DNA of 64,000 bases. Origin: Pseudochelatococcus sp. Its GTDB lineage: Bacteria; Pseudomonadota; Alphaproteobacteria; Rhizobiales; Beijerinckiaceae. This document shows positions 21,430 through 44,200 of the stretch, in pieces. The notes beneath the pieces are model-generated. The model ran no database searches. It was given only the letters and a program-made list of their open reading frames with translations, and had not been told where the DNA came from. The stretch spans positions 71,443 to 135,442 of the forward strand of contig NZ_JBMNUS010000013.1 of NCBI RefSeq assembly GCF_050946405.1, given 5' to 3'. Every line of letters starts with the position of its first letter. The stretch's first letter is position 1. Both the position numbers and the translations under genes were made by a program.

Positions 21430-21557
21430 AGCCGTGCCGGGGCGCAAGAAATGTCGCATTCTGGCGGCGGCCGCCGCCGCCGACCGTGCGGATATCGGAT
21501 GGAATCGACACGGCCATGCCGTTCAGCGCCGGCACGGAGCGCGTTAACGCTCCTGAA

Positions 21558-21663: not shown

Positions 21664-21711
21664 GTCGCGGGGAGAGGCGGGCGCTTGCGTCGTCATCTCC
21701 CATATCGTTAC

Positions 21712-24700: not shown

Positions 24701-27700
24701 CGGGCCTTGCGCCGGCCGATGTCGACTATGTGGAGGCGCACGGCACCGGCACGCCGCTCGGCGACCCGATCGAGGCGATGGCGCTGGCGGAAGCCTACGG
24801 CGCGGGGCGCGACGGCGAGCTGCGCGTCGGCTCCGTCAAGACCAACATCGGCCATCTGGAGGCCGCCGCCGGTCTTGCCGGCCTCGCCAAGGCGGTGCTC
24901 GCGCTCCGGCATGGCAGCCTGCCGGCCTCGCTGCATTTCGAGACGCCCAATCCGCTGATTCCGTGGCCGCAACTGCCCCTGCGCGTCGTCGACCGCGCCG
25001 AGCCGTGGCCGGCCGTGGCCGGGCGGGTGCGCCGGGCCGGCGTCAGCGCCTTCGGCATGAGCGGCACCAACGCGCATGTCATCATCGAGGAAGCACCGCC
25101 GGCGCCCGTGCCCGCGCATGACGACGCGCGGGCGACGGTGCTGCCGGTTTCCGCGCGCACGCCGGAGGAATGCGCCGCGCTGGCGGAGCGTTACGCGGCC
25201 GCGCTGGAGCGCGCCGACAGCGGCCGCATGCACGATCTGGCCCGCACGGCAGCGTGCGGCCGGGCGGCGATGGCGCATCGGCTGGCGGTGACGGGACGCG
25301 ATCCGGCGGAACTCGCCGCGAAGTTGCGGGCGAAGGCCGCCGCCGGGGCTGGCAGGCCCGATGCCGGCGCGCCCGTCGTCTTCCTGCTGCCGGGGCAGGG
25401 GGCGCATGCGCCGGAGGCGGTGCGCGCGCTCCATGCGCGCGAGCGCGTGTTCCGTGAGACGCTGGATGCGGCCGATGCGGCGCTTGAGGGCTTTCTGGAC
25501 CGGCGCCTGACCGATCTCCTGCTGTCGCCGGAGGGCGCGCCGCTTCTGGGGCGCACGGCCTACAACCAGCCGGCGACGGTGGCGGTGTCGCTGGCGGTGG
25601 CGGCGATGCTGCGGGCGTTCGGCGTGCGGCCCGATGCGGTCATCGGGCATTCGGCCGGCGAGATCGCGGCGGCGGCGCTCGCGGGCATGCTGGATCTGCC
25701 CACGGCGGTGCGGTTCGCGGCGGCGCGCGGCGCGGCCATGCAGGCGCTCGACGGCGGCGCGATGATCGCGGTGCGCGCGCCGGCGCAGACGATCAACGAC
25801 GTGATTGCGCAGACCCTGGCGCGGGTCGAGGGCGTGGGCGTCGCCGCCTGGAACGCGCCGGCGCGCGTCACGCTGTCGGGGCCGCGCGAGGCGGTGGCGC
25901 GGGCGGCCGCCGTCCTGCGCGAGGCAGGCGCGCGCGTGGCAGAGCTGCGCGTGGCGGAGCTGGACGTGTCGCACGCCTTCCACTCGCCGATGATGGACGG
26001 CGCGCTCGCCCCCATCCGCGAACTTGCCGCCGGCCTCACGGTGAGCGCGGCGACGGGGCGCATGATTTCCACGCTGACGGGCGGGCCGGTCGATGCCGGG
26101 GCGCTGCGCGATCCCGCCTATTGGGCGCGGCAGGCGCGCGAGCCGGTGGCCTTTGCCGCCGCCGTGTCGGCGGTGGGGGGCGATGCGCCCGACCGCGTCG
26201 ATCCGGTTCTGATCGATCTTGGCGCGCGGCCGGTGCTGGCGCCGCTCGCGGCGGAGGTGCTGCCGCAGGCGCGCTGCCTCGCCGTCTGCGACGCGCGCCG
26301 GCCCGACGAGCGGCTCATCGAGACGCTGGGCGAACTGTTCGAAGCCGGCCGGCCCGTGGCATGGCCCGCCGTCTTCGCGGAGCGTCCCGGCCGGCTCGCG
26401 GAAGCGCCGACCTATCCCTTCATCGGCAAGACGCGCGTGCTGCCGACGGCCGGTGCGGATTCCCGCGCCGGCGAAGCGCAGGCGGCCGGCCGGGCGGAAG
26501 CGCTGCCCGTGCCCGCGGCGACAGCCCCGGTGGCGGGGCGCGAGGCGGTTGCGCACGTCATCCGCAGCGTCCTGCGCGGCGTCGCCGGGCTCCAGCCGGA
26601 GGAGGTGGCGGGCGATGCGACATGGTTCAGCCTCGGCCTCGATTCGCTGCTGATCGTCCAGCTCCAGCAGGCGCTGGCGCGCGAATACGCCATCGACCTG
26701 CCGCTCGCCGCCGTCATGGAGAACGGCGATACGCTCGACCGGCTCGTGACCCTCGTGGTGGAGCGCCTGCCCCGCGTGGCGCAAGCGCCGGTGGAAGCGC
26801 CCGTTATGGAGACGCCCGCTGCGGCGGCGGCTGGCGGCGAAGGCGTCGAGGGGCTTCTCGCCCGGCAGATCGACGCCATGAGCGCGCTGTTCAGCCAGCA
26901 ACTCGCGTTGCTTCAGGGCGGAGTCCGGCCGGCGGTTTCGACGCCCGCCGCTATCCCGGACGTCGCAGTCGCCGGGCCGGCCCCGGCCGCGCCGAAACGC
27001 GAGATCAAGGGCCTGTTCAAGGCGCTGCCGGCGCGCAGGGAGCAGGCGAATCCGGCGCAGGAGGCGCATGTGCGCCGCCTTGCCGCCGCCTTCAACGCCC
27101 GCACGCGCTCCTCGAAGGAGCATACGGCTGCCTATCGTGGCGTCTACGCCAACCCGCGCGCCGTGATCGGCTTCCGCCCCGAGTGGAAGGAGCTGAACTA
27201 CCCCCTGCATGTGGAGCGGGCGGAAGGGCCGTATGTGTGGGATATCGACGGCCATCGTTATGTCGACATCACCATGGGTTTCGGCGTGACGCTGTTTGGC
27301 CACAACCCGCCCTTCGTGCGCGAGGCGCTGGCGGCGGAGCTTGCCGCCGGCTTTCCCGTCGGCCCGCAGAGCGCGCGGGCCGGGCGGGTCGCCGCCATGA
27401 TCAGCGCCATGACCGGCGTGGAGCGGGTGGCGCTGTTCACCACCGGCAGCGAGGCCGTCATGGTCGCGCTGCGGCTGGCGCGCGCGAAAACCGGCCGGCG
27501 CAAGATCGTGACCTTCGTCAATTCCTATCACGGCACGTTCGACGGCGTGCTGGCGGTGGGCTGGACCGAGGGCGCGCGCGTGACGACCATGCCCGTGAGC
27601 GAAGGTACGCCGCAAGGCATGGTCGATGACGTGATCGTGCTGCGCTACGGCGATCCGGCCGCGCTCGACGTCATCCGCCAGCACCTCGCCGAACTGGCGG

Positions 27701-30700
27701 CCGTGGTGGTGGAGCCGGTGCAGAGCCGCGACCCGGCGGTGCAGCCGCGCGCCTTCCTGCACGAGTTGCGGGCGCTGACGGCGCAGGCGGGCGTCGCGCT
27801 CGTTTTCGACGAGACGATCACCGGCTTTCGCGTGCATCCCGGCGGGGCGCAACGCCATTTCGGCATCGAGGCCGATATCGTCACCTACGGCAAGGTCGTC
27901 GGCGGCGGCATGCCGATCGGCGTCGTCTCGGGAAGGCGGCATTATCTCGACGGCGTCGACGGCGGCGACTGGCAGTATGGCGACGATTCCGTTCCTTCCG
28001 CCCGCACCGCCTTCGTGGCCGGCACCTTCAACAACCATCCCCTGACGGCGGCGGCGGCGGAGGCGGTGCTGAAGCACCTCGCCGCCGAGGGGCCGCAGTT
28101 GCAGGAGCGGCTGAACGCCCGCACCGCCGCGATGTGCGCCGAGCTAGACGCCCTGTTCGCGGCCGAGGACGTGCCCGTCCGCATGGCGCATTTCAGCTCG
28201 CTGTTCCGTTTCGAGTTCGCCGGCGACACCGAGATCCTCAACTATCACCTGCTCAACAACGGCGTTTTCGTCTGGGAGGGGCGCAACTGCTTCCTCTCCA
28301 CCGCCCACAGCGACGACGACATCCGCTTCATCGTCGAGGCGGTGCGCAAGGGCATCGCGGAGATGCGGGCCGGCGGATGGCTGCCGCCGTCGCCGGGCCG
28401 CGCCGCGCCCGAGGCGCGCCAAGAGCATGGTGCGCGCGAGGAGGCAGGACCGGCGCCGCTCGGCCGGGGGCAGGGCGAGATGCTGGCGCTGCTCGAAGCG
28501 CGGCCGGAGGCGACGCTCGCCTATAACGAGATGGTGGCCTTCGCGCTCGACGGCCCGCTCGACCGGGAGGCGCTGCGCCGCGCCTTCGCCGGGCTCGTGC
28601 GGCGCCACGAGGCGCTGCGTTGCGCGGGCATCGACGAGACCGGCTGGCGCGCGGCGGCTCTTCCGCCCGCCGACCTGCCGGCGGAAGAGCCGGCCGAAGA
28701 AGGAGCGGTGATGGCGCGCCTGGCGCGCGAACTCGAAACGCCGTTCGATCTGCAACGCGGGCCGCTCATGCGCGCGCTGCTGCTGCGCCTTGCGCCGCAG
28801 CGGCATGTGGTGGCTTTCACCGTGCATCACATCGTCGCCGACGGCTGGTCGCTCGGCCTGATGGCGGGCGAACTCGCGGCGCTTTACGCCGCCGAACGGG
28901 CCGGCGTGGCGGCGGCGCTGCCGCCGGCCGAATCGTTCCGCGCCTTCGTCGCCTGGACGCAGGGCTTGGACGGCGGCGCGTCTCCGATGGCGGAAGACAG
29001 CGCGCCCGTCGTCCTGCCGGCCGCCGATTTCCCGCATCGCGCGTCCTTCCGCGGCGGGCGCGTCCACCGCCGCCTGTCGGCGGGCGGGCGGGAAGGCGAA
29101 GGCGTGTTCGATGCCGCGAGGCGTTTCGCGCGCGCGCATGACACAAGCCCGTTCACGGTGCTGCTCGCGGCCTATGCGCTGCTGCTCGGCCGCCTGTCGG
29201 ACCAGCGCCGGCTGACCATCGGCATTCCCGTCGCCGGCCATACGGAGGCCGGCTTGCCGGTGATGGTGGGGCAGGCGTCGGCGGTGCTGCCGCTGACGCT
29301 GGAACTCGATCCGCAAGCGGATTTCGCAGCCCTCGTTGCCCATGTGAAGGCGGCGCTGGCCGATGCCCGGCACGGCGTCGGCGGGCTCTTCACCGCGCAG
29401 GGCGGGCGGGGCACCGATGTCAACGTGCTGTTCAACCTCGACCGCGGTTTCCGGCTCGATTTCGAGGGATTGGGGCTGACGTGGATATCGCCTCCGGTCA
29501 GCCGGCCGAAAAAGGACCTGTTCCTCAACGTGCTGGAGCTGAACGGCGAAGCGCTGCTCGATCTCGATCATGACGGTGCGCTGGGCGATTCCGCCACGGC
29601 GGAGCGCTGGCTCGATTCCTTCCTGTCGCTGCTCGCCGAGGGGCTGCGCGCGCCCGCGACGCCGATCGCGCGCCTGCCGCTCTCCGCCGCTGACCGGGCG
29701 GCACAGGCGGATGATGTGCGCACGCGCGACGGCTTCGGCGCGCCGGCCGCCATCGGCACGGTCGCGCCGGTGGAGGCGCGCGACGATGCGGGGCTTTGGG
29801 CCGACACGGGGCGGCTCGGCCGGCTGCGGGCGGATGGCGGCGTCGAGGTGCTGGGCGAGGCGCGGCGTTTCCTGCGCACGCGCGGCGGCTGGCTCGATCT
29901 CGACCTTCCGGCGCGGGTGCTGCGGGAACACCCGGCGCTGGCCGATGCCGCCGTGATCGCGGAATCCGGCGGGCTGACCGCCTTCGTGACGCCGCGCGCG
30001 GGCGGGCAGGTCGACGGGCAGGCGCTCGCCGCCTATGCGGCGCTGCGGCTGCCGCCCGAGGCGCGGCCGGCCGCCTTCGTCGTGACGGATATCGCGCGCG
30101 ATGCCGGGGGGCGCGCCCTCCTGCGCGCCGATCACGGCGAGCGTCTCGCCACGCGCGCCCTCACGCCCGCCCGCACCGATGCGGAGAAGGCGGTCGCGGC
30201 GATCTGGGCCGAGGTTCTCGGGCTGGAGGAAGTCGGCGTCCTCGACAGCTTCTTCGACCTCGGCGGTCACAGCCTCAAGGCGCTCGCCATCCTCGCGCGC
30301 GTCGAGGCGCGGCTCGGGCGCACCGTGCGGCTGCGCGCCTTCTTCGAGGAGCCGACCGTGGCGGGGCTCGCGTCACGTCTGGGCGCGGGCGAGGCGCATG
30401 CCGTCATTCCGACCGCGGCACCGGCGGCGCATTATCCGGCGTCGAACGCGCAGGCGCGGCTGTGGATGCTCGACCGGATCGATCCCGGCCTTGCCGCCTA
30501 CAACATCGGCTTTTCGCTGCGCAGCGCCGCGCCTCTCGACGAAACCGCGCTGCGGATCGCGCTGGCGGGCCTCGCCGGGCGGCACGAGAGCCTGCGCACG
30601 GCGCTCATCGACCATGACGGCCTGCCGCGCCAGACGATCCTGCCCGCGTTGCAGCCCGAGCTGCGCATCGAGGATGCGGTGGGCGCGGACGCGGCGGCGC

Positions 30701-33700
30701 TCGTCGCGCGGGAGCGGGCCATCGCCGCCGAGCCCTTCGCGCTGGAGCGCGCGCCGCTCTGGCGGGCGGTGCTGCTGCGCGGGGGGCAAGGGGATATCGA
30801 GCCGGCGGGCGACCGTCTGGTGTTCGTGCTGCATCATGCCATTGCCGATGTGTGGTCGGTCGGCGTTTTCGTGCGGGATTTTCTGGCGTTGTACGCAGAG
30901 GCCGGCGGCGCACGGCTGCCGGCGCTGGCGCTGCAATACCGGGATTATGCGGTCTGGCAGGTGGGGCGGCCGGAGCCGCATCTTGACTGGTGGGTCGCGG
31001 CGCTGGCGGATGCGCCCCGGCTGGAGCTGCGGCCCGACCGGCCGCGCCCGCCGCTCAAGACCTTCAACGGCGATCATGTCGTTCTCGATGTGCCGGGGCC
31101 GGTCGCGGCGGCCCTCAAGGCGCTTGCCGCCGTCAACGGCGCGAGCGCGTTCACGGCGGTGGTCGCGGCGCTCTGCAACCTGCTGTGGGAAGAGACGGAG
31201 GCGCGCGACATCGTCATCGGCACGGTGACGGCGGGGCGCGACCATCCGGCGCTCGCGGACCAGATCGGTTTCTTCGTCAACACGCTGGCGCTGCGCGCGC
31301 GGGTGGCGCCGGAGGCGGGCTTCCTGCCGCTGCTCGCGGGCGTGCGCGATGCGCTGCTGGCGGCGGCCGAACATGGCGATACGCCGCTCGACCGGGTGGT
31401 CGAGGCGTTGAACCGCCCGCGCGATCCGGCGCGCAATCCGCTGTTCGAGGTCGTCGTGGTCATGGACGACCGCGAGGAGATCGACCGGCTGCTCGCCGGC
31501 ACCGGCTTCGCGCTCGCGGAAATCGACACGGCGACGGCGCAGTTCGACCTCACGCTTTATGTCACCGACGGCGCGGACGGCATCCGCATCAAGGCGACCT
31601 ACAATACCGACCTGTTCGACCGCGCCCGCATCGAGGGACTGATGGCGCGGCTGGCGGGGCTGATGGCGGGGGCGGCCGCCGATCCGGCGCGCGCGCTCGC
31701 CGCGCGGGCGCAGGGGGGCAGGGCGGCGCATGGTTCCGCGCCTGGCCAACGGCAAGGCTACGCGCCGTCGCGCCATCAGGAGCGGCTGTGGTTCGTGGAT
31801 CACTTCGAGCGCGGCGTGCTCTATCCGTCCGGGCCGACCTATTACAACATGCCGTTCGTGGTGCGCGTCGACGGCGCGGTCGATGCCGCGCGGCTCGCGG
31901 CTGCCGCTGCGGCGCTTGCGGCGCGGCATGAGGCGCTGCGCGCGGCGCTCGTCACGCAGGGCGACCGTCCGGCCGTCGAGGTCGCGGCGGCTGCGGCGCT
32001 GCCGGTTGCGGAGATTGCGGCGCCGGCGGGGGCGGGGCTTGCCGCAGTCGAGGAGGCGAGCCGCGCGGCCTTCGACCTCGATACGCCGCCGCTCGCCCGT
32101 CTGACGCTCTGCCGCGAGGCGGGGAGCGGCGCCTGCTGGCTCGCCCTGACGGTTCATCACGCCATGGGCGACCGGGCGGCGCTGCGCACGCTGGCGGAGG
32201 AACTCGCCCGCCTTTATGCCGACCCGGCCGCCGCCCTGCCGGAAATCCGCCCCTTCGGCGCGGCCCATGCGCTGCCGGAGCGGGCGGTGGAGGCCGGCCA
32301 TGAGGCGGATGCCGCCTATTGGCGCGAGGCGCTGGCGGGCGTTTCCGCGCTCGTGCTGCCGACGGACCGGCCCCGCCCCGCGATCCACACCTTCACGGCG
32401 GGCCGCGTCGCGGGGCGGCTCGACGCGGCGCTGCGCGGGCGGATCGACGCGCTGGCGGCGGCGCTCGGCGTGAGCCGGGCGGATGTGCTGCGCGCCGGTT
32501 ATCAGGCGTTGCTGCATCGTCTTTCCGGCCAGCGGGATGTCGTCATCGGCGAGACCGTGCAGCCGCCGCAACCGGCGCGGACGGTCGGGCCGCTCGCCAA
32601 TCTCCTGCCCTTGCGGCTCGACGTGGAGGCCGGCGAGGGCTTTGCCGCGCTGGTGCGGCGCGCGGCGGCGCGGCGGCAGGCGGATGCGGCGCATGGCGCG
32701 ATCCCCTTCGATCTGCTGGTGCTGGCGGTGAAGCCGCGCAACGACATGAGCCGCACGGCGCTGTTCGATGTGCTGTTCCACCATGAGAATGCGACCGCCG
32801 CCCTGCCGGCCGGGTGGGCGGCGGTCGACACCGGGCTCGGCTGGGGCAAGTACGATTTCGTGCTGTCCGTGGTGCCGGATGGCGACGGGCTGGCGGTGAG
32901 CCTCGTCTACAACCGCGACCTTTTCGACGCCGCCAGCGCGCAGGCCGTCCACGCGCGCTACGGGCAACTGCTGGCGGCGGCGCTGGCGCAGCCGGAGCGG
33001 CCGCTGTCTGCGCTCGACATCATGCTGCCGGGAGAGCGCGCGGCGCTGCTGGCCGAAGCCGGCGAGGTGGCCGATTACCCGCGCGGCCTCACGCTCACGG
33101 CGCGTTTCGAGGAGATGGCGGCGCGCCACGGGGCGCGCATCGCCGTCACCGACACCGACGGGGAACTGACCTATGCGGCGCTCGACGCGCGCGCCAACCG
33201 GCTGGCGCATCGCCTGCGCGCGCTCGGCGCGGGACCGGAGGCGCTGGTCGGGCTGTTCGTGGGGCGCACCTGGCGCATTCCCGCTGGCATTCTCGGCATT
33301 CTCAAGGCGGGCGCGGGCTATGTGCCGATCGATCCCGCCTATCCCGACGAGCGCATCCGCTTCATGGTGGCGGATTCGGGCATGCGGCTCATCGTCACCG
33401 ACGCTGAAAACGCGGCGGCGGCGCACCGCCTCGGCATTGCTACGGTGGTGATCGATGATCTGGCGGAGGACCTGCCCGTCGCGGCGACACCCGAAAATGC
33501 CGCGCCCGAAAATGCTGCGCCCGAGAACGTCGCTTACGTCATCTACACGTCCGGTTCCACCGGCATGCCCAAGGGCTGCGTCATCGAGCACCGCAACGTC
33601 ATCCAGCTCTTCTTCCACGAGGGGCGGCCGTTCGCCTTCGGGCCGGATGACGTGTGGAGCCTGTTCCACTCCGCCTGTTTCGACTTCTCGACGTGGGAGA

Positions 33701-36354
33701 TCTACGGCGCGCTGCTCTTCGGCGGCCGGCTCGTCGTCGTGCCGCAGGCGCTGACGCGTGAGCCCGCCGCCTTTCTGGAACTCGTCGCCCGCGAGGGGGT
33801 GACGGTGCTGAGCCAGACGCCGACCGCCTTTTACGGGCTGATCGAGGCGGCCCGGCAGCGCCCCGGCCTGCATCTTGCGCTGCGCGAGATCGTCTTCGGC
33901 GGGGAAGCGCTGGCGCCGGCCCGGCTTGCCCCGTGGCGGGCGCTCCACCCGGCCGCGCGCCTCGTCAACATGTACGGCATCACCGAAACGACGGTGCATG
34001 TGACGTTCAGGGAGATCGGCGACGCCGAGATCGCGGAGGGCCGCAGCGTCATCGGCCGGCCGCTGCCGTCCTGCGGCGTGTTGCTCGTCGGCCCCGATCT
34101 CGCGCCCTGCCCGCGGGGCGTGGCCGGCGAGATCGTGGTCGCGGGCCACGGCGTCGCCCGCCGCTACCTGAACCGGCCGGAACTCACGGCGGAGCGCTTC
34201 ATCGCGCACCCGGACCTGCCCGGCGGGCGCGTCTACCGCTCCGGCGATCTCGGCCGGATCGGGCTTGACGGCGAGCTGGTCTATCTCGGCCGCATGGACG
34301 ATCAGGTCAAGATACGCGGCTTTCGCATCGAGCCTGGCGAGATCGAGCGCCGGCTGGTCGCGCATCCCGCGATCCGCGATGCGGCCGTTCTCGCCGAGGG
34401 CGGCGAGGGCGGCGAGGGCGCGGCGGGCGAGAGCCTCTGCGCCTGTGTCGTCACCGATGCGCCGCCCGGCCGCGAGGAGCTGTTTCACTATCTGGCGGAC
34501 AAGCTGCCCGACTACATGATTCCGTCGCGCTTCCTGCGCGTGGCGCGCATCCCGCTCACGGCCAACGGCAAGGCGGACCGCCGGCGGCTCGCGGCGGAGG
34601 GCGGCGAGGCGATCGGCGCGGGGGGCGGCGCGGAGGAAGGCCGGGCGCCGCGAACGCCACTGCAAAAGGCGGTGGCGCGCATCTGGTGCGAGGTGCTGGG
34701 CGTGCCGCAGGTGGGGCTCGACGACAATTTCTTCGCGCTCGGCGGCCATAGCCTCAAGGCCAATCAGGTCGTGGTGCGCATCCGCCAGCGCCTCGGCGGC
34801 AGTCTCGACCTGCGCGATTTCTTCAGCGCGCAGACGCTCGCCGTGCTGGTCGAGCTGATCGAGCGGCGCGGGCTCGGCGCGGCGGGCACTATTGCCCCGG
34901 CGCCGTCCGCGCCCGACTATCCGCTCTCCTTCGCGCAGCGCCGGCTGTGGCTGGTGCAGAACATGAACCCCGATAGGGTGGCCTACAACATGGCCGGCGC
35001 CTTCGTCGTGGAGGGGGCCGTCGACCGGGAGCGGCTGGCGGCGGCGTTCCGGGCGCTGGCGGTGCGCCACGAGATCCTGCGCACGCGCTTCGTCTCGCGC
35101 CACGGCGAGCCCCGGCAGGTGGTGGATGCCGGCATCGACGGGCATATGGCGGTGTTCGAGGCCGGCCATGACGCGGGAAGCGGCGGGATGGCGGCCGTGG
35201 AGCGGCTGCTCGCGGCGGAGCTTCGCCATGTCTTCGATCTCGCGCGCGGGCCGCTGGCGCGGGTGCATCTGGCGGAGCTGCCCGTCAAAGGGCACGGCGG
35301 CTGCGCCATCATCATCAACCTGCATCATATCGTCTCCGACGGCTGGTCGGTGACGGTCATGCTGCGCGAGCTGGAGGCGCTCTACCGCGCGGCGCTGGCT
35401 GCGCCGCAGGCGACGCCGGCGGAGATCGCGGCGCGGGCCGGGCTGCCGGCGCTGCCGGTCCAGTACCGGGACTATGCCTTGTGGCAGCACGGCGAGGCGG
35501 CGGGCGAAGGGTTGCGGGCGGCCCGCTCCTACTGGCTCGCCCGCTTCGAGGACGAGGCGCCGGCGCTGGAACTGCCGGCCGACCGGCCGCGTCCGCATAC
35601 GCCCGGCGGGGCCGGCGCCATCGTGCATGCCGTGCTCGACGAGGAACTGACGCAGGCGCTGAGGGACCTCGCGCGCCGCCACGACATGAGCCTGTTCGGC
35701 GTGCTCGCCGCGCTCGTGCGGGTGCAGCTCGCGCTCCTGTCGGGGCAGGACGACATCACCATCGGCACGCCGGTCGCCGGCCGCAACCTGCTGGAGCTGG
35801 AGGGGCAGATCGGCTTCTACCTCAACCTGCTGGCGCTGCGCGGCCGCATCGGGCCGCAGGATGCCTTCGGCGATGTCCTGAAGGCGGAGCGCACCCTGGT
35901 GCTCGACGCCTTCGCCCATGAAGCCTGTCCGTTCGACCTCCTGGTCGGGGAGCTGGGCGTCACGCCGGAGCGCGGCCGCCATCCGCTTTTCGACGTGCTG
36001 ATCATTCTCCAGAACAACGAGCCCGTGCGCCTCGACCTTGCCGGGAGCCGGGGCGCGCCGCTGCGCGATACCAGCATCAGCGCCAAATACGATCTCAACT
36101 ATATGTTCGAGGACCGGCCGGCGCTCGAACTGCTGCTGGAATACGCGGCGGATCTTTTCGATGCGGACACGGCCCGCCGCATCGCCGGGGATTTCGTCGC
36201 CCTCGCGCGGGCGGTCGCCGCCGATCCCTCCATCGGCGTCGACAGCCTGCGGGATCGCATGCAGCGGGCCGTGCCGCCGCCGGATGCGCCAGCGGCGGAT
36301 GTGCTGGCGCATGACGCGGCGCATGGTGCGGCTTTTGCCGATGACGGGTGGTGA
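21712..36354 (+). CDS. Hybrid FAAL-PKS-aminotransferase-NRPS megasynthase: FAAL-ACP-KS-AT-ACP-AMT-C-(A remnant)-PCP-C-C-A-PCP-C
   Basis: A single ORF (21640..36354; the 21640 codon is TTG) carries all the motifs listed in the domain features below. The most likely ATG starts are 21712 (MSATIRQ) or 21763 ([14 protein letters not shown]). Confidence 0.95.
   Translation: [4880 protein letters not shown]
21850..23490 (+). other. Domain: fatty acyl-AMP ligase / acyl ligase (FAAL-like adenylation domain)
   Basis: [22 protein letters not shown] (about 22290-22350), [37 protein letters not shown], and a terminal SGKVQRF. Confidence 0.85.
23560..23790 (+). other. Domain: ACP1
   Basis: [19 protein letters not shown]; the candidate Ppant Ser codon is at 23668..23670. 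Confidence 0.7.
23845..25110 (+). other. Domain: ketosynthase (KS)
   Basis: VDTACSS with Cys at 24340..24342, [27 protein letters not shown], and it ends at [10 protein letters not shown]. Confidence 0.9.
25370..26290 (+). other. Domain: acyltransferase (cis-AT, malonyl-type signature)
   Basis: [16 protein letters not shown] with Ser at 25651..25653, and SHAFHSP (the HAFH motif is associated with malonyl-CoA selection). Confidence 0.85.
26530..26770 (+). other. Domain: ACP2
   Basis: [18 protein letters not shown]; Ser codon at 26644..26646. Confidence 0.85.
27080..28390 (+). other. Domain: PLP-dependent class III aminotransferase (AMT, glutamate-1-semialdehyde aminomutase-like)
   Basis: [42 protein letters not shown], and [13 protein letters not shown] with the candidate PLP Lys at 27892..27894. 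Confidence 0.85.
28450..29690 (+). other. Domain: condensation C1
   Basis: HHIVADGWS at 28825. Confidence 0.85.
29700..30150 (+). other. Vestigial adenylation-domain remnant (C-terminal subdomain only, motifs decayed)
   Basis: There are only about 190 codons between the end of C1 and the PCP1 serine. WADTGRL stands in place of A7, [22 protein letters not shown] in place of A8, and DAGGRALLR in place of A10. No A1-A6 motifs are present. Confidence 0.7.
30170..30390 (+). other. Domain: PCP1
   Basis: [11 protein letters not shown]; Ser codon at 30271..30273. Confidence 0.9.
30420..31700 (+). other. Domain: condensation C2
   Basis: [16 protein letters not shown] at the start; HHAIADVWS at 30832. 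Confidence 0.85.
31760..33010 (+). other. Domain: condensation-like C3 (tandem to C2, atypical active-site context HHAMGDRAA)
   Basis: It starts [30 protein letters not shown], with HHAMGD at 32155. No carrier domain lies between C2 and C3. Confidence 0.75.
33070..34600 (+). other. Domain: adenylation A2 (by-eye code DFWSVGMVHK, Thr-like)
   Basis: [14 protein letters not shown] (about 33540), [51 protein letters not shown]. Confidence 0.85.
33490..33534 (+). repeat. In-frame 15-bp tandem repeat x3 ([15 protein letters not shown]) inside A2
   Basis: cccgaaaatgccgcg / cccgaaaatgctgcg / cccgagaacgtcgct, read directly. Confidence 0.9.
34650..34870 (+). other. Domain: PCP2
   Basis: [11 protein letters not shown]; Ser codon at 34750..34752. 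Confidence 0.9.
34915..36354 (+). other. Domain: C-terminal condensation C4
   Basis: [16 protein letters not shown] at the start; HHIVSDGWS at 35323. The protein ends about 340 codons later with no carrier or TE domain. Confidence 0.85.
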
Positions 36355-36357: not shown

Positions 36358-38247
36358 ATGTGCGGCATCGTGGGATTTCTCGACCGGGATGGCGCGCCGC
36401 GCCCGCACGATCTGCTGCGCCGCATGGCGGAGGCCGTGCGCCACCGGGGGCCGGATGACGAGGGCTTCTTCACCGGCGACGATATCGGTCTCGGGTTCCG
36501 CCGTCTGTCGATCGTCGATCTGGAAGGCGGGCGGCAGCCGATGTTCGCCGGCGACGGGCGTGTGGCGGCCATCTGCAACGGCGAGATCTACAACCACGCC
36601 GAGCTGCGGGCCGATCTCACGGCGCGCGGCCACCGCTTCCGCACGCGCTGCGACACGGAGGTGATTCCGGCGCTGTTCCTCGAATACGGGCTCGACTTTC
36701 CGCGCCGCATCAATGGCCAGTTCGCCTTTGCCGTCTACGATCGGGAGACGCGCCGGCTGGTGCTGGGGCGCGACCATGTGGGCATCGCGCCGCTGTTTCA
36801 TGCCGAGGTCGGCGGGCTGCTGTTGTTCGGCTCGGAAATCCGGGCGCTGCTGTGCCATCCGGGCCTTGCCCGCGATGTCGACCTGACGGCGCTCGACCAG
36901 ATCCTGACCTTTCCGGGGCTGGTGAGCCCGCGCACGATCCTGGCGAACGTGCGCGCGCTGCCGCCGGGGCATCTGCTGGTGGCCGATCCCGGCCGGCCGC
37001 CGCGCCTCGATCGCTTCTGGGATCTCGATTTTCCGCGCCATGATGAGTTTCCGCGCCATGACGAGATCGGCCCGCCCGGCCGGGCGGACGATTACGTCGA
37101 CGAGCTGGACGCCGCGTTGCGGCAGGCGGTGCGCTACCGGTTGCAGGCCGATGTGCCGGTCGCCGGCTATCTGAGCGGCGGCCTCGACAGTTCGCTCGTC
37201 GCCGCCATCGTCGCCGATCTGGAGCCGGGGGCCACGCGGCATACGTTCTCCATCACCTTTCCCGACAGGGCGATCGACGAGCGCGAGCCGCAGCGCCTCG
37301 TCGCGGCGAGGCTCGGCACCGCCCATCACGAGCGGGAGATCGATCCCGCGCGACTCGCCGCCGGGCTCGACCGCATCGTGGGCTGTGCCGAAGCGCCGCT
37401 GCGCGAATCCTATAACGTATGCTCGCTGCATCTGTCGGGCATGGTGCGCGAGGCCGGGCTCAAGGTGGTGCTCACCGGCGAGGGCGCGGACGAGCTTTTC
37501 GGCGGCTATGTGGGCTACAGGCTCGATGCGGAGCGCGCGCCTGACGCGGACGACCCTTACGATCTCGACGCGCTGATCGAGGGCGAGTGGCGCGAGCGCC
37601 TGTGGGGAGACAGCCGTTTCTTCTACGAGAAGGATTATGGCGCGAGCCGCGACATCCGCCGCGAACTCTACGCGCCGGCGCTGGCCGAGCGCTTCGAGGC
37701 GTTCGACTGCCTCGCCCATCCGCTTGTCGACCGCGCGCAGATCGAGGGCCGGCATCCGTTTCATATCCGCTCGTATCTCGATTTCAAGCTGCGCCTGGCC
37801 GATCATCTGCTGGCGGATCACGGCGACAGGGTGAGCTTCGCCAATTCCGTCGAGGCGCGCTATCCGTTTCTGGACATCGGCGTCATCGACGTGGCGCGCC
37901 GCATCCCGCCCGCCCTCATGGTGCATCAGGGCGAGGAAAAGCATATCCTCAAGCGTCTCGCCCGGCGCTACCTGCCGGCGCAGATCGTGGAGCGCAAGAA
38001 GTTCAGCTTCGTCGCCCAGAGCAGCGCCACGCTGCTGCGCGAGGGCGTGCCGCGCGTGCGCGAGGTGCTCGACGAGGCACGCGTCGCGGCGGACGGCTAC
38101 TTCAGCCCGGAGGCGGTCGCGCATCTCAAGCAGCGGCACGCCGCGCCGGGCGCGGAACTCAACCAGACCTTCGAAGACGACTTCCTGATGGTCGCACTGA
38201 CCTTCGGGATCCTGCGCGAACAATTCGATCTGCCGAAACTCTCATGA
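36358..38247 (+). CDS. Asparagine synthetase B-type glutamine-dependent amidotransferase
   Basis: N-terminal nucleophile MCGIVG, the PP-loop SGGLDSS, and a length of 629 aa. It starts 4 nt after the megasynthase stop codon, and its stop overlaps the next NRPS start (ATGA). Confidence 0.9.
   Translation: MCGIVGFLDRDGAPRPHDLLRRMAEAVRHRGPDDEGFFTGDDIGLGFRRLSIVDLEGGRQPMFAGDGRVAAICNGEIYNHAELRADLTARGHRFRTRCDTEVIPALFLEYGLDFPRRINGQFAFAVYDRETRRLVLGRDHVGIAPLFHAEVGGLLLFGSEIRALLCHPGLARDVDLTALDQILTFPGLVSPRTILANVRALPPGHLLVADPGRPPRLDRFWDLDFPRHDEFPRHDEIGPPGRADDYVDELDAALRQAVRYRLQADVPVAGYLSGGLDSSLVAAIVADLEPGATRHTFSITFPDRAIDEREPQRLVAARLGTAHHEREIDPARLAAGLDRIVGCAEAPLRESYNVCSLHLSGMVREAGLKVVLTGEGADELFGGYVGYRLDAERAPDADDPYDLDALIEGEWRERLWGDSRFFYEKDYGASRDIRRELYAPALAERFEAFDCLAHPLVDRAQIEGRHPFHIRSYLDFKLRLADHLLADHGDRVSFANSVEARYPFLDIGVIDVARRIPPALMVHQGEEKHILKRLARRYLPAQIVERKKFSFVAQSSATLLREGVPRVREVLDEARVAADGYFSPEAVAHLKQRHAAPGAELNQTFEDDFLMVALTFGILREQFDLPKLS
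37030..37065 (+). repeat. In-frame 18-bp tandem duplication (FPRHDE FPRHDE) in the AsnB-like gene
   Basis: tttccgcgccatgatgag / tttccgcgccatgacgag, with one synonymous difference. Confidence 0.9.
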
Positions 38248-41200
38248 CAGGACAAGGCCCCGTGCACTCCACCATGCAGCCTCCCGTGCAGCGTCCCATG
38301 CAGCGTAGCTCCTACGTCGACCGGTTCGAGGAGAATGCACGGGCGCGCCCCGCCGCCGCCGCGCTGGCGACGGCGGCGGGTGAAGTGTCCTACGGCGCGC
38401 TCGACGCGCGGGCGCAGCGCCTCGCCCGGCGGCTCGCGCGGCTGGGGGCGGGGAAGGGCGTCATCGTCGGCCTGTTTCTGGACGCCGACGAAACCTATGT
38501 CGCGGCGCTGCTCGGCGCCGGCAAGACGGGCGGCGCCTTCCTGCCGCTGCCGCCGGACCTGCCGCCGCTGCGCGTCGCCGCCTGCCTCGCCAAAGCGGAA
38601 TGCGGGATCGTCGTGACGCTGGGCCGCCACCGCGCCGCGCTGGATGCGGCGCTGGCTGAAGCCGGCCGATCGGTCGCGGTCATCGAGGCGGATGCGCCGG
38701 ACGATGCCGGCGACGCCGCGCCGGTGGCGCGCGCCATCGGCCCTCACGATCCCTGCTACGTCATGTTCACGTCGGGCTCCACCGGCGCGCCGAAGGCCAT
38801 TCTGGGGCCGCATCGCAGCCTCTCCCACTTCCTGCGCTGGGAGGTCGGCGAGTTCGGGCTGGATGAGACGGTGCGCGGCTCGTGGCTCGCGCCCGTCACC
38901 TTCGATGTCAGCCTGCGCGACATCCTCGTGCCGCTCATGGCCGGGGGCACGCTCTGCATTCCCGATGCCGAGACGCGGATGGTGCCGCGCAAGCTGGTCG
39001 ACTGGCTGGCGCGCGAAAAGGTGACGCTGGTGCATTGCGTGCCGACGGTGCTGCGCCTGATCACGCGCGAGCTGGCCGACCGCGGCGGCGATGCCGGCCT
39101 TGCGGTGCGTCATCTGCTGGTGGCGGGCGAGCCGCTGCTCGGCGCGGATGTCGCGGCCTGGCGGGCGGCGGCAGGCGGGCGCGCCGAGGTCGTGAACCTC
39201 TATGGCCCGTCGGAAACCACGCTGGCGAAGGTGTTCCACCGCATCGGCGAATTGCCCGCCGATCCGCGGCGGGTGCTGCCCATCGGCCGGCCGCTGCCCG
39301 ACACATCGGTGCTCGTTCTTTCCAACGGCCGGCTTTGCGGCCCGCAGCAGATCGGCGAGATCCACATCCGCACCGCCTATCCCTCGCTCGGCTACCTGAA
39401 CGACGCGGCGCTGACGGCGGCGAGCTTCATCCGCAATCCGCTCGGCAACGACGATGCCGACATCGTCTACAAGACCGGCGATCTGGGGCGCTACCTGCCG
39501 GACGGCACCGTCGAATGCCTCGGCCGGCAGGACAATCAGGTCAAGGTCAATGGCGTGCGCATCGAGCTTGCCGAGATCGAGGTCGCGCTGCGCGCCGTCG
39601 CGGGCATCGCCAAAGCGGCGGCGGCGGTGCATGCGGGCGGCGGGGCCGATCCCGTGCTCGTGGGTTATTATGTGCCGGATGCCGGCGCGGCGCCGTCGGC
39701 GGAGGCGATCAAGGCGCAGCTCGGGCGCATCCTGCCGGCGGCCATGCTGCCGCACGTGCTGGTGCGTCTCGACGACCTGCCGCGCACCATCAGCGGCAAG
39801 CTCAATCGCAAGGCGTTGCCGCGCCCGGAGGAGCTGTTCTACGCCGAGCATGCCTATGTGGCGCCGCAGGGCGAGACGGAAGACAAGCTCGCGGCCATCT
39901 GGCGCGAGATCTTCGGCCTGACGCGCGTCGGCGTCGAGACCGCCTTTCACGATTTCGGCGGCGACAGCCTGCGGGCGATCCGCGCCGTGCAGAAGATCTT
40001 CCAGACATTCTCCGTCGAGATCAGCCTGAAGGATTTTCTCGCCGCCGCGACGATCCGGGAACTGGCGCGCCTCGTCGCGGCCGCAGTCCCCGCGCCGGTG
40101 AGCGCCATTGCGCGCGCGGCCGATGCGGCAAGCTATCCCGCCACCCCGGCCCAGAACCGGCTGTGGCGTCTCGACCGGCTCGGCATCGCCCCCACCGCCT
40201 ACAATCTGACGGAAGCGTGCGAGCTGCTGGGGCCGGTGAACGAGGCGGCGCTGGAGCGCGCCTTTCGCGACCTGATCGGCCGCCACGAATCGCTGCGCAC
40301 CACATTCGAGGAGGATGCGGACGGCAACGCGCGCCAGATCGTGCACCATGACACGCCCTGGCGGCTCGAACGCGTCGACCTGCGCCGCCATGCGGAGCCG
40401 GACCGCGCCGCCGCGCTGCTGGCGCGGGACAATGCCGGGCATCGCTTCGACCTGCATCGCGGCCCGCTGCTGCGCGTCGTGCTCGCCCGCCTGCCGGATG
40501 CGGAGGGCGCGGCGCGGCATGTGCTGCTGTTCAACATTCATCACATCGTCGCCGACGTGTGGTCGCTCGGCGTGCTGGTGCGCGAGGTGGCGGCGCTCTA
40601 TGCGGCGGCACTCGCCGGCCGCGACGCCGGCCTTGCGCCGCCGGCGCTGCAATTGCGGGATGTGGCCGTGTGGCAGGCCGGGCGGGCGGCCGCCGGCGCG
40701 CTGGACGGCGACCGCGCCTATTGGCTGGAGCGCTTCTCCGCGCTGCCCGCGCCGCTCGACCTGCCGGCCGACCGGCCGCGCCCGCCGGTGCAGACCTTCA
40801 ACGGCACCACGCGGCGCTTCCGCCTGCCGGCGGACCTGACCGGGCAGCTCGACGGCCTCGCGCGCCGGCACGGCACGACGCGCTTCGCCGTGGTCACGGC
40901 GCTGACGAAGGCGCTGCTGCACCGTTATACCGGACAGACGGATATCGTCGTCGGCAGCCCCGTCGCCGGCCGCACGGATGCGGCGCTGGCGGACCAGATC
41001 GGCTATTACGTCAACACGCTCGCGCTGCGCGACACTGCGGAGGCGGGAGCGCGCTTCGCCGACCTGCTCGCGCGCGTGGCGGCGACGGTGCGCGAGGGGC
41101 TCGCGCATCAGGATTACCCGTTCGACGCGCTGGTGCAGGAACTGCCGCTCGAACGCGACATGAGCCGCTCGCCGCTGTTCGACGTCATGGTCGTCGACCA

Positions 41201-44200
41201 CGCCTTCGAGGATGGCGACCTGCGGCTGGAGGGCGTGCGCGTCATGCCCTTCGGCGACCGGAACGCCTGGAACTTCAGCCGTTTCGATCTCGTCTTCCAT
41301 TTTCAGGACGAGGCGGACGAGCTGGTGCTCGATCTCAACTACAACACCGACCTGTTCGACGATGCGCGCATCCTGCGCATGGGCGCGCATTTTGCGGAGC
41401 TGGCGCGCGCCGCAGCCGGCGACGAGTCGCAGGCTGTCGGGGAACTTAACCTGCTGCCGGCGGACGAAAGCCGGGAACTGGCCGCTTTCACGCACGGGCC
41501 GGTCGTGGCGCGCGATGCGGCGGCGACCATCGTCTCGACCTTCGTGGCGGCGGCGCGCCGTCACGCCGGGCGCCCCGCCGTCATCGATGCCGGAGGGCGC
41601 GTGCTCTCCTATGGCGCGCTCGACGGGGCGACGGACCGGCTGGCGCACGATCTCATCGCGGCGCATGGCGTCGCCCCCGGCGAGCGCGTGGCGGTGTTCG
41701 CGAGGCGCACGCCGGAATCGGTCGCCGCCATGCTCGCGGTGATGAAGGCCGGCGGCGTCTATGTGCCGATCGATCCCGACTATCCGGCCGCGCGGATACG
41801 GTTCATGCTGCGCCAGGCCGGCTGCCGGCTGGCGCTCGCCGACAGCGGGGCGGCCCCGGTCGCGGATGTGCAGGTCGTCGCCGTCGCGCCCCGGCTCGCG
41901 GCCGGCGACGCGGCGCAGCCCGTCGACCGCAGCGGCGCGGGCGAGGCGGCCTATGTGATCTTCACCTCCGGGTCGTCGGGCGAGCCGAAGGGGGTGGCGG
42001 TCGCCCACGGCGGTTTCGTCAACATGTCGTCGGGGCAGATCGCCCTTTTCGGACTCACGCCCGAGGACCGGGTGTTGCAGTTCGCCTCGCCGTCCTTCGA
42101 CGCCTCGCTCGCCAACATGTTCATGGCGCTGTTCAGCGGCGCGGCGGTGGTGCTGCCGTCTGCCGGCGACATCAAGAACACGGCCGATTTCCTGGCGCTG
42201 CTGGCGCGGAGCGGCACCACGGCGCTCACCCTGCCGCCGACCTATCTGCGCGCGCTGCGGCGGGCGGAACTGGCCGGGGTGAGGGTGCTCATCACGGCGG
42301 GCGAGGAAGCGCCGGCCGCCGACCTGCTCCATTACGCGCAGCGGCTCGCCGCCTTCAACGCCTACGGCCCGACGGAGTTTTCGGTCTGCGCCACGGTGCA
42401 TGAGGTCAGCGAGCGAGACCGCGACCGCCTGCGCCTGCCCATCGGCCGGCCGTTGCCGAATACGAGCGTGCATGTTCTCGATGCCGCGCTCAAGCCCGTC
42501 CCGGTCGGGATCGCGGGGGAAATCTGGCTCGGCGGCAGCGGGCTCGCGCTCGGCTACGAGGGCGATGCGGCGCAGACCGCCGCGCGCTTCGTCACGCATC
42601 CGCACACGGGCGAGCGCCTCTACCGCACCGGCGATCGCGGCGCGTGGCGCGAGGACGGCGCGGTCGATTTCCTCGGCCGCGCCGACGATCAGGTGAAGGT
42701 GGCGGGCCACCGCATCGAGCCGGGCGAGATCGAGGCGGCGATGCGCGCGGTGCCGGGCGTGCGCGACGCCCATGTCGCCACAGTGGCGCGGGCCGACGGC
42801 TCCGCCGCGCTCGCCGCCTGGTACTGCGCGGACGAGCGCGTGGAGCTGTGGCCTTCGGTGGCGGAGTTCTACGTCTACGACGACATCGCCTATGGCAGCA
42901 TGGCCGCCGACGAGGGGCGCAACCGGCGCTACCGCGAGGCTTTCGCGCGCCACCTGCCCGGCAGGACGGTGGTGGATATCGGCACCGGGCCGGTGGCTAT
43001 CCTCGCGCGCCTCGCCATCGAGGCCGGCGCGCGCAAGGTCTACGCCATCGACAGGCTGGAGGCGACGGCGCGCAAGGCGCGGGAGACCGTGGCGGCGCTC
43101 GGCCTCGACGACCGCATCACGGTGATCCACGGCGACGCCCTGACCCTGGAGCTGCCCGAGACGGTGGATTTCTGCATCTCCGAGATCGTCGGCGCCATCG
43201 GCGGGGCGGAGGGCGCGGCGCGCATCATCAACGGCGCGCGCCGCTACCTGAAGGACCCGGCGGCCATGCTGCCGCAGTTCAGCGACACGCGCATCGCGGC
43301 GCTGGCGCTGCCTCACGACCGGCTCGCGCCGGGCTTTTCGGACATCGCGGCGCATTACGTCGACAAGATCTTCGCGGAGGTCGGCCAGCCGTTCGACCTG
43401 CGCCTGTGCCTCAAGAACCTGCCGCGCGAGGCCATCGTCTCCACCGACGCGCCGTTCGAATATCTGGACTACACGCGCGAGGTGCCGGTCGAGGCGACGC
43501 ACACGGTCGAACTCGTCGTCACGCGGGACAGCGAGATCACCGGCTTCCTCGTCTGGCTGCGGCTCGGCGTCGATGCGGATGCGGTGGTGGATATTCTCGA
43601 CAACCCCGGAAGCTGGCTGCCGGTGTGGCTGCCGGCCTTCGCCGTGCCGGTCGCGGTGGCGGCGGGCGACCGCATCGCCATCACCATCGCGCGGCGGCTT
43701 TGCGGCAACGGTTTCAACGTCGACTTCTTCCTCGACGGCACGGTGACGCGGGCGGCCGGCGAGGCGGTGCCGTTCGCCTGCCGCAGCGCGCATTTCGGCG
43801 ACGGCTTCCGCCGCACGCCCTTCCATGCGGGGCTGTTCGCGGGGGAAGGGGTGCCGCGCTTCGAGGCGCCGACGCCGGCCGTGGTGCGCCGTCACCTGCT
43901 GGGCGCGGTGCCGGCGCATGCCGTTCCGTCCTTCCTCGTGCCGCTCGACAGGCTGCCGGTGACGATCAACGGCAAGATCGATCGCGCCGCCCTGCCGGCC
44001 CCCGGCGATGTCGCGGAAGGAGCGCGCCGGGGAGAGGCGCTTGCGCCGCAGACGCCGCTGGAGCGGCAGGTGCTGGATGTGTGGCGCGAGATCATGAGCC
44101 GGCCGGACATGACGGCGGGCGATGATTTTTTCAGCATGGGCGGCGATTCCATCCGCGCCATCCAGATCGTCTCGCGCCTGCGCCAGCTCGGCTGGAAAGC

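Follow-up and report, generated by a model that had tools for sequence, protein, structure and literature searches.

A condensation domain at the end of a hybrid PKS/NRPS megasynthase of Pseudochelatococcus sp. is probably one half of an elongation module split around an asnB-like gene

The DNA analysed here (the window) is a stretch of 64,000 nucleotides from contig NZ_JBMNUS010000013.1 of Pseudochelatococcus sp. It carries a hybrid polyketide synthase/nonribosomal peptide synthetase (PKS/NRPS) megasynthase whose last domain is a condensation (C) domain, followed by an asnB-like gene and by two further NRPS genes, NRPS2 and NRPS3. We examined with which partner this terminal C domain works. 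The features concerned (A, adenylation domain; PCP, peptidyl carrier protein; E, epimerase domain; TE, thioesterase) are the following:

21763..36354, plus strand: hybrid PKS/NRPS megasynthase (Pfam on overlapping 700-aa chunks, motif scan, gene call)
34669..34860, plus strand: PCP2, donor carrier of the terminal C domain (PF00550, 63 bits; GGHSL)
34915..36246, plus strand: terminal condensation domain (PF00668, 280 bits, profile 4-443/456)
36247..36354, plus strand: C-terminal tail and stop codon (alignment to cis C-A junctions)
36358..38247, plus strand: asnB-like glutamine-dependent amidotransferase, 629 aa (Pfam GATase_7 and Asn_synthase)
38244..45683, plus strand: NRPS2, with A3, PCP3, C4, A4 (inserted methyltransferase), PCP4 and E (Pfam on chunks)
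38325..39800, plus strand: A3, acceptor-side adenylation domain (code DVRHLALLAK, GrsA-PheA numbering)
39882..40076, plus strand: PCP3, with the atypical signature FGGDSLRAIRAV (PF00550)
54332..58387, plus strand: NRPS3, with C5, A5, PCP5 and TE (Pfam, code, tree, start codon)

The open reading frame of the megasynthase is open from a TTG at 21640, and the gene caller placed the start at ATG 21763, giving a length of 4,863-4,904 aa; the 4863-aa call was found in a contig identical to the window. According to Pfam, the protein begins with an AMP-binding acyl-AMP ligase, an acyl carrier protein (ACP), a ketosynthase (KS), an acyltransferase (AT), a second ACP and a class-III aminotransferase. 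It continues with C1, a vestigial A remnant, PCP1, the two C domains C_a and C_b, A2, PCP2 and the terminal C domain. This is the order of MycA-type initiation with a beta-amino fatty acid, with the AT domain integrated in addition. The specificity code of A2, DFWSVGMVHK, is of the Thr type.

The terminal C domain corresponds to aa 4426-4869 of the frame 21640..36354 and lies immediately behind PCP2 in the Pfam assignment. An earlier reading of the same DNA, made from the sequence alone (the sequence-only reading), had described a full C domain after PCP2 with HHIVSDGWS at 35323, and a short acidic/Ala tail closing the protein. Pfam and the motif scan bore out these coordinates, with the motif at nt 35323-35349, and the tail was found to comprise 35 residues after the C domain, followed by TGA at 36352-36354. 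Core motifs C1-C6 were all found by pattern search, and a C7-like RGRHPLFD was recognized by eye. The domain thus has the PF00668 fold in full length, with HHxxxDG and the core motifs, and no sign of degeneracy or specialization was seen in it.

The subtype of the domain was judged from a ranking of solved structures, an identity matrix, and a neighbour-joining tree of 123 C/E domains taken from the window and from related loci. The best solved structures were Txo1 and Txo2 of teixobactin (237 and 229 bits), TycC6 (220 bits) and the PCP-C of fuscachelin (199 bits). Scores fell to 58 bits for SrfA-C, a DCL domain, 41 bits for the starter C domain of CDA and 29 bits for the fungal C_T domain of TqaA. 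Within the cluster, the terminal C domain shares 40% identity with C4, and 21-23% with C5 and with the E domain of NRPS2. In the tree it was placed in the LCL clade, together with the orthologous C domains that precede asnB-like genes elsewhere. Moreover, the donor module A2-PCP2 has no E domain and hence supplies an L-configured donor, for which colinearity requires an LCL domain. Of the marks of a release-type domain none was seen: the motif is canonical, no distinct clade was formed, and NRPS2 and the TE-bearing NRPS3 follow on the same strand. By these comparisons the terminal C domain is classed as an ordinary LCL elongation domain. It had been considered beforehand that it might cluster with inactive or degenerate C domains; the phylogeny grouped it with the elongation LCL domains instead.

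The asnB-like gene opens 3 nt after the megasynthase and its stop overlaps ATG 38244 of NRPS2, and it is translationally coupled on both sides. The sequence-only reading had stated that the next NRPS begins directly with an A domain. It was right in that NRPS2 (N-terminus MTGQGPVHSTMQ...SYVDRFEEN) has no N-terminal C domain, AMP-binding starting at residue 28, but the next gene is the asnB-like gene and not an NRPS. That gene had been treated as incidental, and it sits exactly in the break. Alternative starts of NRPS2 are GTG 38262 and ATG 38298. Orthologues open at the equivalent of MQRSSYVDRFE (nt 38298), so that the true start may lie 18 codons later; NRPS2 is without an N-terminal C domain whichever start codon is true.

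When the joined C-terminus of the megasynthase and N-terminus of NRPS2 were aligned with cis C-A junctions (three or four of this cluster and four metagenomic ones of the A3 type, eight in all by the higher count), the cut was found to lie inside the C-A linker. The split pair is otherwise colinear with the cis junctions and carries about 34 additional residues at the cut. Hence, a complete C domain ends the upstream protein, the downstream partner opens at the N-terminus of its A domain, and the break falls in the linker between them. The two partner genes are not adjacent, since the 1.9-kb asnB-like gene stands between them; the three genes are still translationally coupled.

The tail of the megasynthase is rich in Ala, Pro and Asp, ends in ...AFADDGW and extends about 23 residues beyond the cis C-A linkers. 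Acidic endings with a terminal aromatic or aliphatic residue were noticed by eye on most C-ending proteins that have an A-starting partner (about 17/19), among them ..FADDGW, ..ELMDAW, ..DLDDAW, ..IEDEEW, ..PLLGAL, ..NLDEVF, ..TIDEDF, ..DIEQDF and ..ISTDY. C-fold domains that precede a C-starting partner, or close an E-COM junction, have different endings. An acidic/aromatic tail was also seen in locus L010, where no asnB-like gene intervenes. The tail of the megasynthase is possibly a docking peptide.

Further downstream, the last C-fold domain of NRPS2 was placed among the epimerases in the tree, and the protein ends in ...TPSDMTYDKLSLDDLDRLLLAE, a COM-donor-like helix. The code of A4, DAATIAAVC, is aromatic-like, and module 4 is N-methylating. 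C5 of NRPS3 falls in the DCL clade, the code of A5 (DLTKLGHICK) is Asp-like, and the only thioesterase of the assembly line is on NRPS3. The absence of an own C domain for module 3 on NRPS2, the single TE on NRPS3, and the succession of E and COM by the DCL domain C5 support a single assembly line.

Code positions were mapped with a GrsA fragment, a mapping that reproduced DAWTIAAICK. The code of A3, DVRHLALLAK, is identical in 9/10 positions to that of the initiation A domain Zmn16-A1, DPRHLALLAK, and is of the same type. NRPSpredictor called 2-aminoadipate for the Zmn16 domain (PMC3547906), and in prezeamine the residue was determined by nuclear magnetic resonance and mass spectrometry as "gamma-aspartate", an Asp joined through its side-chain carboxyl (PMC5811116). 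It is likely, from the resemblance of the codes, that A3 activates Asp at the side-chain carboxyl. No A domain with a standard Asn code was found in the window. The standard Asn code is DLTKLGEVGK.

The signature of PCP3 is common to most PCPs that stand behind A domains of the D-x-R-H code type of A3 (GGDS in 25/37, GGHS in 3/37). The motif GGDSL(K/R)AI(R/K)..IY(K/Q/R) occurs in these PCPs, yet a C domain follows them and not an E domain. This signature may serve recognition by a trans partner such as AsnB.

The AsnB homologue has the nucleophile Cys2 (MCGIVG) and the PP-loop YLSGGLDSS of class II amidotransferases. Since both are present, it should transfer glutamine-derived ammonia. It scored 434.7 bits against TIGR01536 (cut-off 267) and 295.9 bits against the E. 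coli-type NF006949, under the cut-off of 499, and is not classed as the housekeeping equivalog. The best PDB matches were the hydroxyamidotransferase TsnB9 (7ylz) and AsnB (1ct9). All of its 120 best homologues (120/120) are stand-alone proteins of 597-656 aa, and none among these 120 is fused to NRPS domains.

Related loci were collected by a scan of one genome per species with the AsnB protein, which gave 80 loci (AsnB-sampled loci; these and the loci added later are numbered with L), and their domains were mapped by BLAST and hidden Markov models. The junction C / AsnB / A-PCP (a slash denoting a break between polypeptides) recurs in the three independent assemblies available for this organism, and no fewer than 15 loci of other genera have it too. 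The nearest AsnB relatives keep it, namely those of Rhizobiales bacterium 32-66-11 (73%), Azospirillum sp. TSH100 (66%) and Endothiovibrio diazotrophicus (65%). These three share a full architecture of aminotransferase, C, PCP, C, C, A, PCP, C / AsnB / A, PCP, C, A (with methyltransferase), PCP, E, which is also present in Pseudoalteromonas, Thiorhodococcus, Sulfitobacter, Puniceibacterium (two species) and a metagenome-assembled genome (MAG) of Halieaceae. In other settings the junction appears as PKS-...-PCP-C / AsnB / A-PCP / C-A... (Nisaea and a Vicinamibacterales MAG) or as A-PCP-E-C / AsnB / A-PCP-C-A-PCP-E (Desulfatirhabdium), and the C / AsnB / A-PCP triad was found in a Polyangiaceae MAG (L038) as well. 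The spacing from the stop of the C-ending gene to the start of AsnB was 1-7 nt in 15/18 junctions checked.

The C domains before AsnB do not group in a single clade. Where an E domain precedes them, in L003 and L038, they were placed with DCL domains including C5, and the others with LCL domains. Such switching between LCL and DCL according to the upstream module is the behaviour of elongation domains and not of a dedicated release domain. The combination of an asnB homologue exactly in the C/A break with an A-PCP of this type on a separate polypeptide spans Proteobacteria, Acidobacteriota, Bacteroidota and Actinomycetota, and is present also in Bacillota, Lentisphaerota, Verrucomicrobiota and Myxococcota.

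In the AsnB-sampled loci we counted 38 A domains of the D-x-R-H/T type; 31/38 come immediately after AsnB, and the others stand elsewhere within their locus. None of the 38 (0/38) has a cis C domain upstream, compared with 79/80 of the remaining A domains of these loci (p = 3e-30 by Fisher's test, with no correction for relatedness). A D-x-R-H A domain is present in 35/40 of the loci that contain A domains, and the standard D-L-T-K (D[LA]TK) type for Asp/Asn in 1 only. The tie between the AsnB homologue and this type of A domain is the most informative feature of the locus.

As a control, metagenome contigs were chosen by similarity to A3 (14 D-x-R-H A domains); a search with A3 across 1.8 billion proteins gave a ranking filled by giant NRPSs with many A domains and summed scores. 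In the control sample, 6/14 are fused behind a C domain in one open reading frame and 8/14 start a polypeptide, with AsnB within 6 kb in one locus. A general rule that every D-x-R-H A domain starts a polypeptide was hence rejected, and the always-N-terminal position is limited to the AsnB-sampled loci. The split is found in 38/38 cases in the AsnB-sampled loci and in 7/13 without AsnB nearby (p = 1e-4). As judged from these counts, the split goes with AsnB and is not a property of the D-x-R-H type as such. The fused versions occur in L096, L092, L114, L089, L091 and L100, with L096 reading C-A-PCP-C-A(DVRHFALLA)-PCP. They indicate that this A type is a normal elongation partner of a C domain, and we regard them as the strongest in-silico argument that the terminal C domain and A3-PCP3 form one module.

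Taken together, the terminal C domain quite probably provides the condensation step of an otherwise normal elongation module, split at the C-A linker. On this proposal, the acyl ligase, PKS and aminotransferase domains would supply a primer of the beta-amino fatty acyl kind, in the manner of MycA (PMC3039948, PMC11411415), C1 would couple it to a unit loaded in trans on PCP1, which has no A domain, and one of the tandem C domains would hand the chain to Thr-PCP2. The terminal C domain would then take the (beta-amino-acyl)-X-Thr from PCP2 and condense it in trans onto the alpha-amine of beta-aspartyl-S-PCP3. The chain would proceed through C4, the N-methylating module 4 and the E domain, a classical E/C COM junction would carry it into C5-A5-PCP5-TE, and the TE would free one lipopeptide.

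The AsnB homologue would move glutamine-derived ammonia to an adenylated carboxylate. By analogy with carrier-directed AsnB homologues (see below) it might amidate the free alpha-carboxylate of the beta-linked Asp, a role that we put forward tentatively, at a little under an even chance. An isoasparagine-type residue would result, formed on PCP3 or after release; the homologue may also act on free Asp. AsnB-linked and AsnB-less A domains share one code, which argues that the substrate of the A domain is the acid and that amidation comes later. The role of AsnB is the least secure step of the mechanism.

The sequence-only reading had left two options side by side. The one in which the terminal C domain works in trans with A3-PCP3 gains from the LCL assignment, the break in the linker, the junction shared across genera, the stereochemical match, the fused C-A versions and the single TE. 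In the other, the terminal C domain releases a short lipopeptide, which here would be the lipo-dipeptide beta-amino-acyl-X-Thr, with a free amine, ammonia or an internal nucleophile as acceptor. NRPS2 and NRPS3 would then make a separate tripeptide, for which A3-PCP3 would be an initiation module of the Asp type. Release by C-terminal C domains is known in general (rhabdopeptide-type, fungal C_T), the A3 type of domain initiates chains in zeamine Zmn16 and apparently also in L005, L041 and L022-34, and in L001 and L002 the AsnB / A-PCP pair stands without a C domain directly upstream. The terminal C domain, however, clusters with elongation LCL domains and has 29 bits to TqaA, the C domains before AsnB follow their upstream module, the break is in a linker that is intact in the fused versions, and the megasynthase, the asnB-like gene and NRPS2 are translationally coupled. 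Moreover, the window genes examined included neither a decarboxylase gene nor one for amine supply. No positive support for release was thus obtained at this locus, and we consider it improbable, leaving it some weight because the same A-PCP type initiates elsewhere. It is less probable still that the terminal C domain serves another acceptor in trans, such as PCP1 or a carrier outside the megasynthase, in a line that is iterative or departs from colinearity, with C_a or C_b serving A3-PCP3. Such a scheme would use the C domain that is one more than colinearity needs (C1, C_a, C_b and the terminal C domain for PCP1-PCP3), and the module without an A domain. Against it, C_b is in a normal cis C-A arrangement with A2, synteny with AsnB / A-PCP across several unrelated architectures belongs to the terminal C domain, and the tail motifs correlate with A-starting partners.

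A frameshift or assembly artefact at the break, which the sequence-only reading had named as a danger, was checked, as was decay by a pseudogenizing stop or by asnB having inserted into a formerly uninterrupted gene and so inactivated the pathway. The family is not free of such errors, as an apparent frameshift inside C_a of the L084 MAG shows. At the break, however, the junction GGGTGGTGAGCCATGTGCGGC is identical in three independent Sequence Read Archive assemblies of this organism (matching the window at 100% in one case and at 99.8% in the two others), all three of which carry exactly the same AsnB protein. The break with its short spacing is kept in orthologues, the flanking domains are all intact, and the GC content at third codon positions is 0.85-0.88 in the megasynthase, the asnB-like gene and NRPS2 alike. 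An artefact or decay is hence extremely improbable.

The split module may also be real while AsnB merely supplies Asn as a precursor or is unrelated, A3 then loading Asn or alpha-linked Asp. The score against TIGR01536 lies above the cut-off for the equivalog, that is, the homologue scores as a generic asparagine synthase, and one survey lists the related code DPRHVSLLAK as Asn-activating (PMC12283262). Moreover, the slot is taken elsewhere by accessory genes whose enzymes work on free amino acids. On the other side, AsnB goes with D-x-R-H A domains and hardly ever with D[LA]TK domains, as counted above, and it was found with A domains that share their code with AsnB-less ones. A pocket with Arg239/His278 and a free alpha-carboxylate is also that of McyE, McyB2 and the 2-aminoadipate module of ACVS. 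In Zmn16-A1 the Arg239/His278 pocket is likewise one in which the alpha-carboxylate stays free (PMC3547906, PMC5811116). We consider this combined alternative unlikely, although of some weight. A pure Asn-supply role of the AsnB homologue appears unlikely because no A domain of the window has a standard Asn code and AsnB tracks the D-x-R-H domains.

Several observations weigh against the split module that we prefer and against the role put forward for AsnB. The support for cooperation of the terminal C domain with A3-PCP3 is comparative in kind (synteny, fused homologues, single TE), and the tail pattern is an impression gained by eye. D-x-R-H A-PCP units act as chain starters in Zmn16, stand alone in L005 and L041 and occur in the actinobacterial loci L022-34, so that NRPS2 might start a chain by itself. 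L001 and L002 lack a C domain before AsnB, the upstream protein stopping at the aminotransferase. To these are added the survey entry and the TIGR01536 score just mentioned, and the occupation of the AsnB slot elsewhere by racemases acting on free amino acids, which means that the position is no proof of action on a carrier.

Each component of the split module has a known counterpart. The iturin family (MycA/MycB/MycC of mycosubtilin, ItuA/B/C of iturin) shares the start logic of acyl ligase, ACP, KS, ACP, aminotransferase and C (PMC3039948, PMC11411415). Unlike that family, the window cluster has an integrated AT, a first NRPS module without an A domain, a tandem C-C, an asnB-like gene in the C/A break and a shorter predicted peptide, and it comes from a high-GC proteobacterium. 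A natural C/A split was reportedly described there by Duitman et al. in 1999, with a C domain closing MycA and an A domain opening MycB. Zmn16 A1-T of zeamine/fabclavine, whose code is so close to that of A3, likewise has an A domain without a cis C domain (PMC3547906). It is a chain starter with free alpha-amine and alpha-carboxylate and has no AsnB homologue, unlike A3, which stands in the middle of the line, has its C domain in trans before it and comes with AsnB.

For the amidation step, GbnC of gladiolin and MgsD of the glutarimides are AsnB homologues that amidate carrier-bound malonyl or succinyl units, GbnC with the support of genetic and labelling evidence (bioRxiv 10.64898/2026.04.24.720606). 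Like the window gene, they are stand-alone, glutamine-dependent and placed beside the carrier that they service. Their substrates are malonyl-/succinyl-ACP starters of PKSs, whereas the proposal made here concerns an aminoacyl-PCP in an NRPS elongation module. OxyD of oxytetracycline is an AsnB-like amide synthetase of the same kind. In microcystin synthesis, the iso-linked D-MeAsp and D-Glu A domains with Arg239 thioesterify the side-chain carboxyl and leave the alpha-carboxylate free, and McyF is a racemase. The genes for racemization and methyl-Asp supply there resemble the racemase and mutase genes beside A(DxRH) in L088, L090 and L092. The microcystin modules are cis-fused, their carboxylate stays free, and they have no amidotransferase. 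Terminal release domains (rhabdopeptide-type, fungal C_T) are likewise the last domain of a polypeptide, but they are the last of the whole line, the fungal ones forming a clade of their own, whereas the terminal C domain here is of the LCL type and is followed by the rest of the line and a TE.

In the literature searched, including a search with code strings, no asnB homologue in the C/A break of a beta-Asp-type module was found described, nor an AsnB homologue that acts on the aminoacyl-PCP of an NRPS elongation module. As a route to isoasparagine, these searches brought up the AMDH domain of cystobactamid alone (PMC7966384). C/A breaks, MycA-type primers, LCL domains, AsnB-family amidotransferases and side-chain-linked Asp modules are known singly; it is their combination that appears to be new.

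If the proposal holds, the product to expect would be one lipopeptide with about five residues on a beta-amino fatty acid, and not two fragments. A C-ending protein would then be no signal of chain release when the next A-starting gene has a D-x-R-H code, and that code would be read as side-chain-linked Asp or methyl-Asp and not as 2-aminoadipate. The AsnB/A-PCP tie, recurrent across phyla and always at a polypeptide break, would point to a form of NRPS tailoring, the amidation of iso-linked Asp. AsnB with A-PCP would, if so, be a compact, portable cassette for engineering. That C / AsnB / A(beta-Asp)-PCP is a widespread three-gene module making isoasparagine-type residues, by amidation of a beta-aspartyl thioester on a PCP or of the nascent peptide, with the separation of C from A-PCP needed for amidation, is a more speculative extension, which we regard as doubtful. 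It would account for the invariant split with AsnB (38/38), as compared with the 6/13 fused A domains that have no AsnB nearby.

Some of the related loci deviate from the common junction. In L001 (Sphaerotilus, 2876-21866) and L002 (Limnohabitans) the order is acyl ligase-KS-AT-aminotransferase (stop) / AsnB / A-PCP-C-A(methyltransferase)-PCP-E. A gene of L001 from about 21251 opens with a domain 40.6% identical to C1, and the locus ends there; this suggests that the C1...C segment was relocated downstream. In L010 (a Chitinophagaceae MAG, 1-21875) there are three separate A(DARH)-PCP-C proteins, each starting with its A domain, and a single AsnB gene. The C/A junctions between such chained proteins must be elongating, and several Asp-type residues seem to be served there by one non-adjacent amidotransferase.

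In L005 (a Lentisphaerae MAG, 8953-9993) and L041 (a Verrucomicrobia MAG, 8858-9988), an NAD-synthase-like PP-loop enzyme lies between a stand-alone A(DVRH)-PCP and AsnB, that is, a second ATP-dependent enzyme of the amidating type beside the same carrier. The loci L022-L034 and L068 of Streptomyces/Kitasatospora read AsnB / A(DARHLALMT)-PCP / C-A-PCP-C-A..., and stand behind a divergently transcribed type II TE. Their second A domain has the code DATQLALLA, with Thr/Gln replacing Arg/His. Upstream of the A domain in these loci, the stop-to-stop frame extends about 270 aa further without a Pfam match and is probably non-coding there.

In the split loci without AsnB, an Asp/Glu racemase gene was found between the C-ending protein and the A gene (L090, L092). 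Genes for methylaspartate mutase and TauD also take this slot in some loci. A metagenomic operon, L088 (386-9183), has AsnB / TauD-family dioxygenase / Asp/Glu racemase / fused methylaspartate mutase / A(DARHFALMA)-PCP-C, and could, from its gene content, hold the full toolkit for a hydroxylated or methylated, racemized and amidated Asp residue. Racemase and mutase neighbours of A3 relatives fit Asp or methyl-Asp as substrate. In L084 (the MAG of Rhizobiales bacterium 32-66-11) the megasynthase is broken at about 5100-5130, inside C_a after the C5 motif, with overlapping reading frames; this is probably a frameshift error or a pseudogene and not a domain boundary.

Module 1 of the megasynthase has no adenylation core between C1 and PCP1 (window 29680-30378). 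The stretch of 170 aa holds a faint AMP-binding_C remnant only, with a degenerate A8 motif, and an intact PCP1 (GGHSL) follows it. The missing core is constant in all orthologues. No stand-alone A domain for PCP1 was found among the window genes examined, so that PCP1 must be loaded in trans, for which CmnI of capreomycin offers a comparison (PMC12400406). The tandem C_a and C_b between PCP1 and A2 (window 30427-33051), one C domain beyond colinearity, is likewise kept in all orthologues. C_a is a canonical LCL domain with HHAIADVWS and 44% identity to C4 of NRPS2. C_b is divergent; it lacks the Gly after Asp in the motif and scored 133 bits against Txo1, compared with the 237 bits of the terminal C domain. 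The idea that C_a is an E domain, and that a colibactin-like acyl-D-Asn prodrug is cleaved by an S12 peptidase, was rejected because of this identity of C_a to C4 and its placement in the C clades.

An ABC exporter of the cyclic-peptide type is encoded at 45724-47364 of the window. Right after it, at 47402-50836, lies a domain of the S12/serine beta-lactamase fold fused to an autotransporter beta-barrel, with SASK at residue 101 and YSN at 213. S12-fold genes were also seen beside AsnB in L015, L016, L017 (two copies), L037 (fused to an ABC transporter) and L084. The S12 autotransporter might mature the product at the cell surface, as a peptidase or an amidase. By analogy with the logic of GbnC/GbnM in gladiolin, the amide may be a cryptic mask that is later removed by this co-clustered, surface-exposed protein.

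The left flank of the window (1-20000), with an ABC transporter, a GMC oxidoreductase and an aldehyde dehydrogenase, shares 75-78% identity with replicons of Ancylobacter, Rhizobium, Agrobacterium and Shinella. The cluster is immediately preceded by a stand-alone class-III aminotransferase gene (14389-16452, minus strand) and a gene of the alanine racemase family (17096-18346). At the right edge of the cluster, an Sfp-type phosphopantetheinyl transferase is encoded at 58261-59166 on the minus strand.

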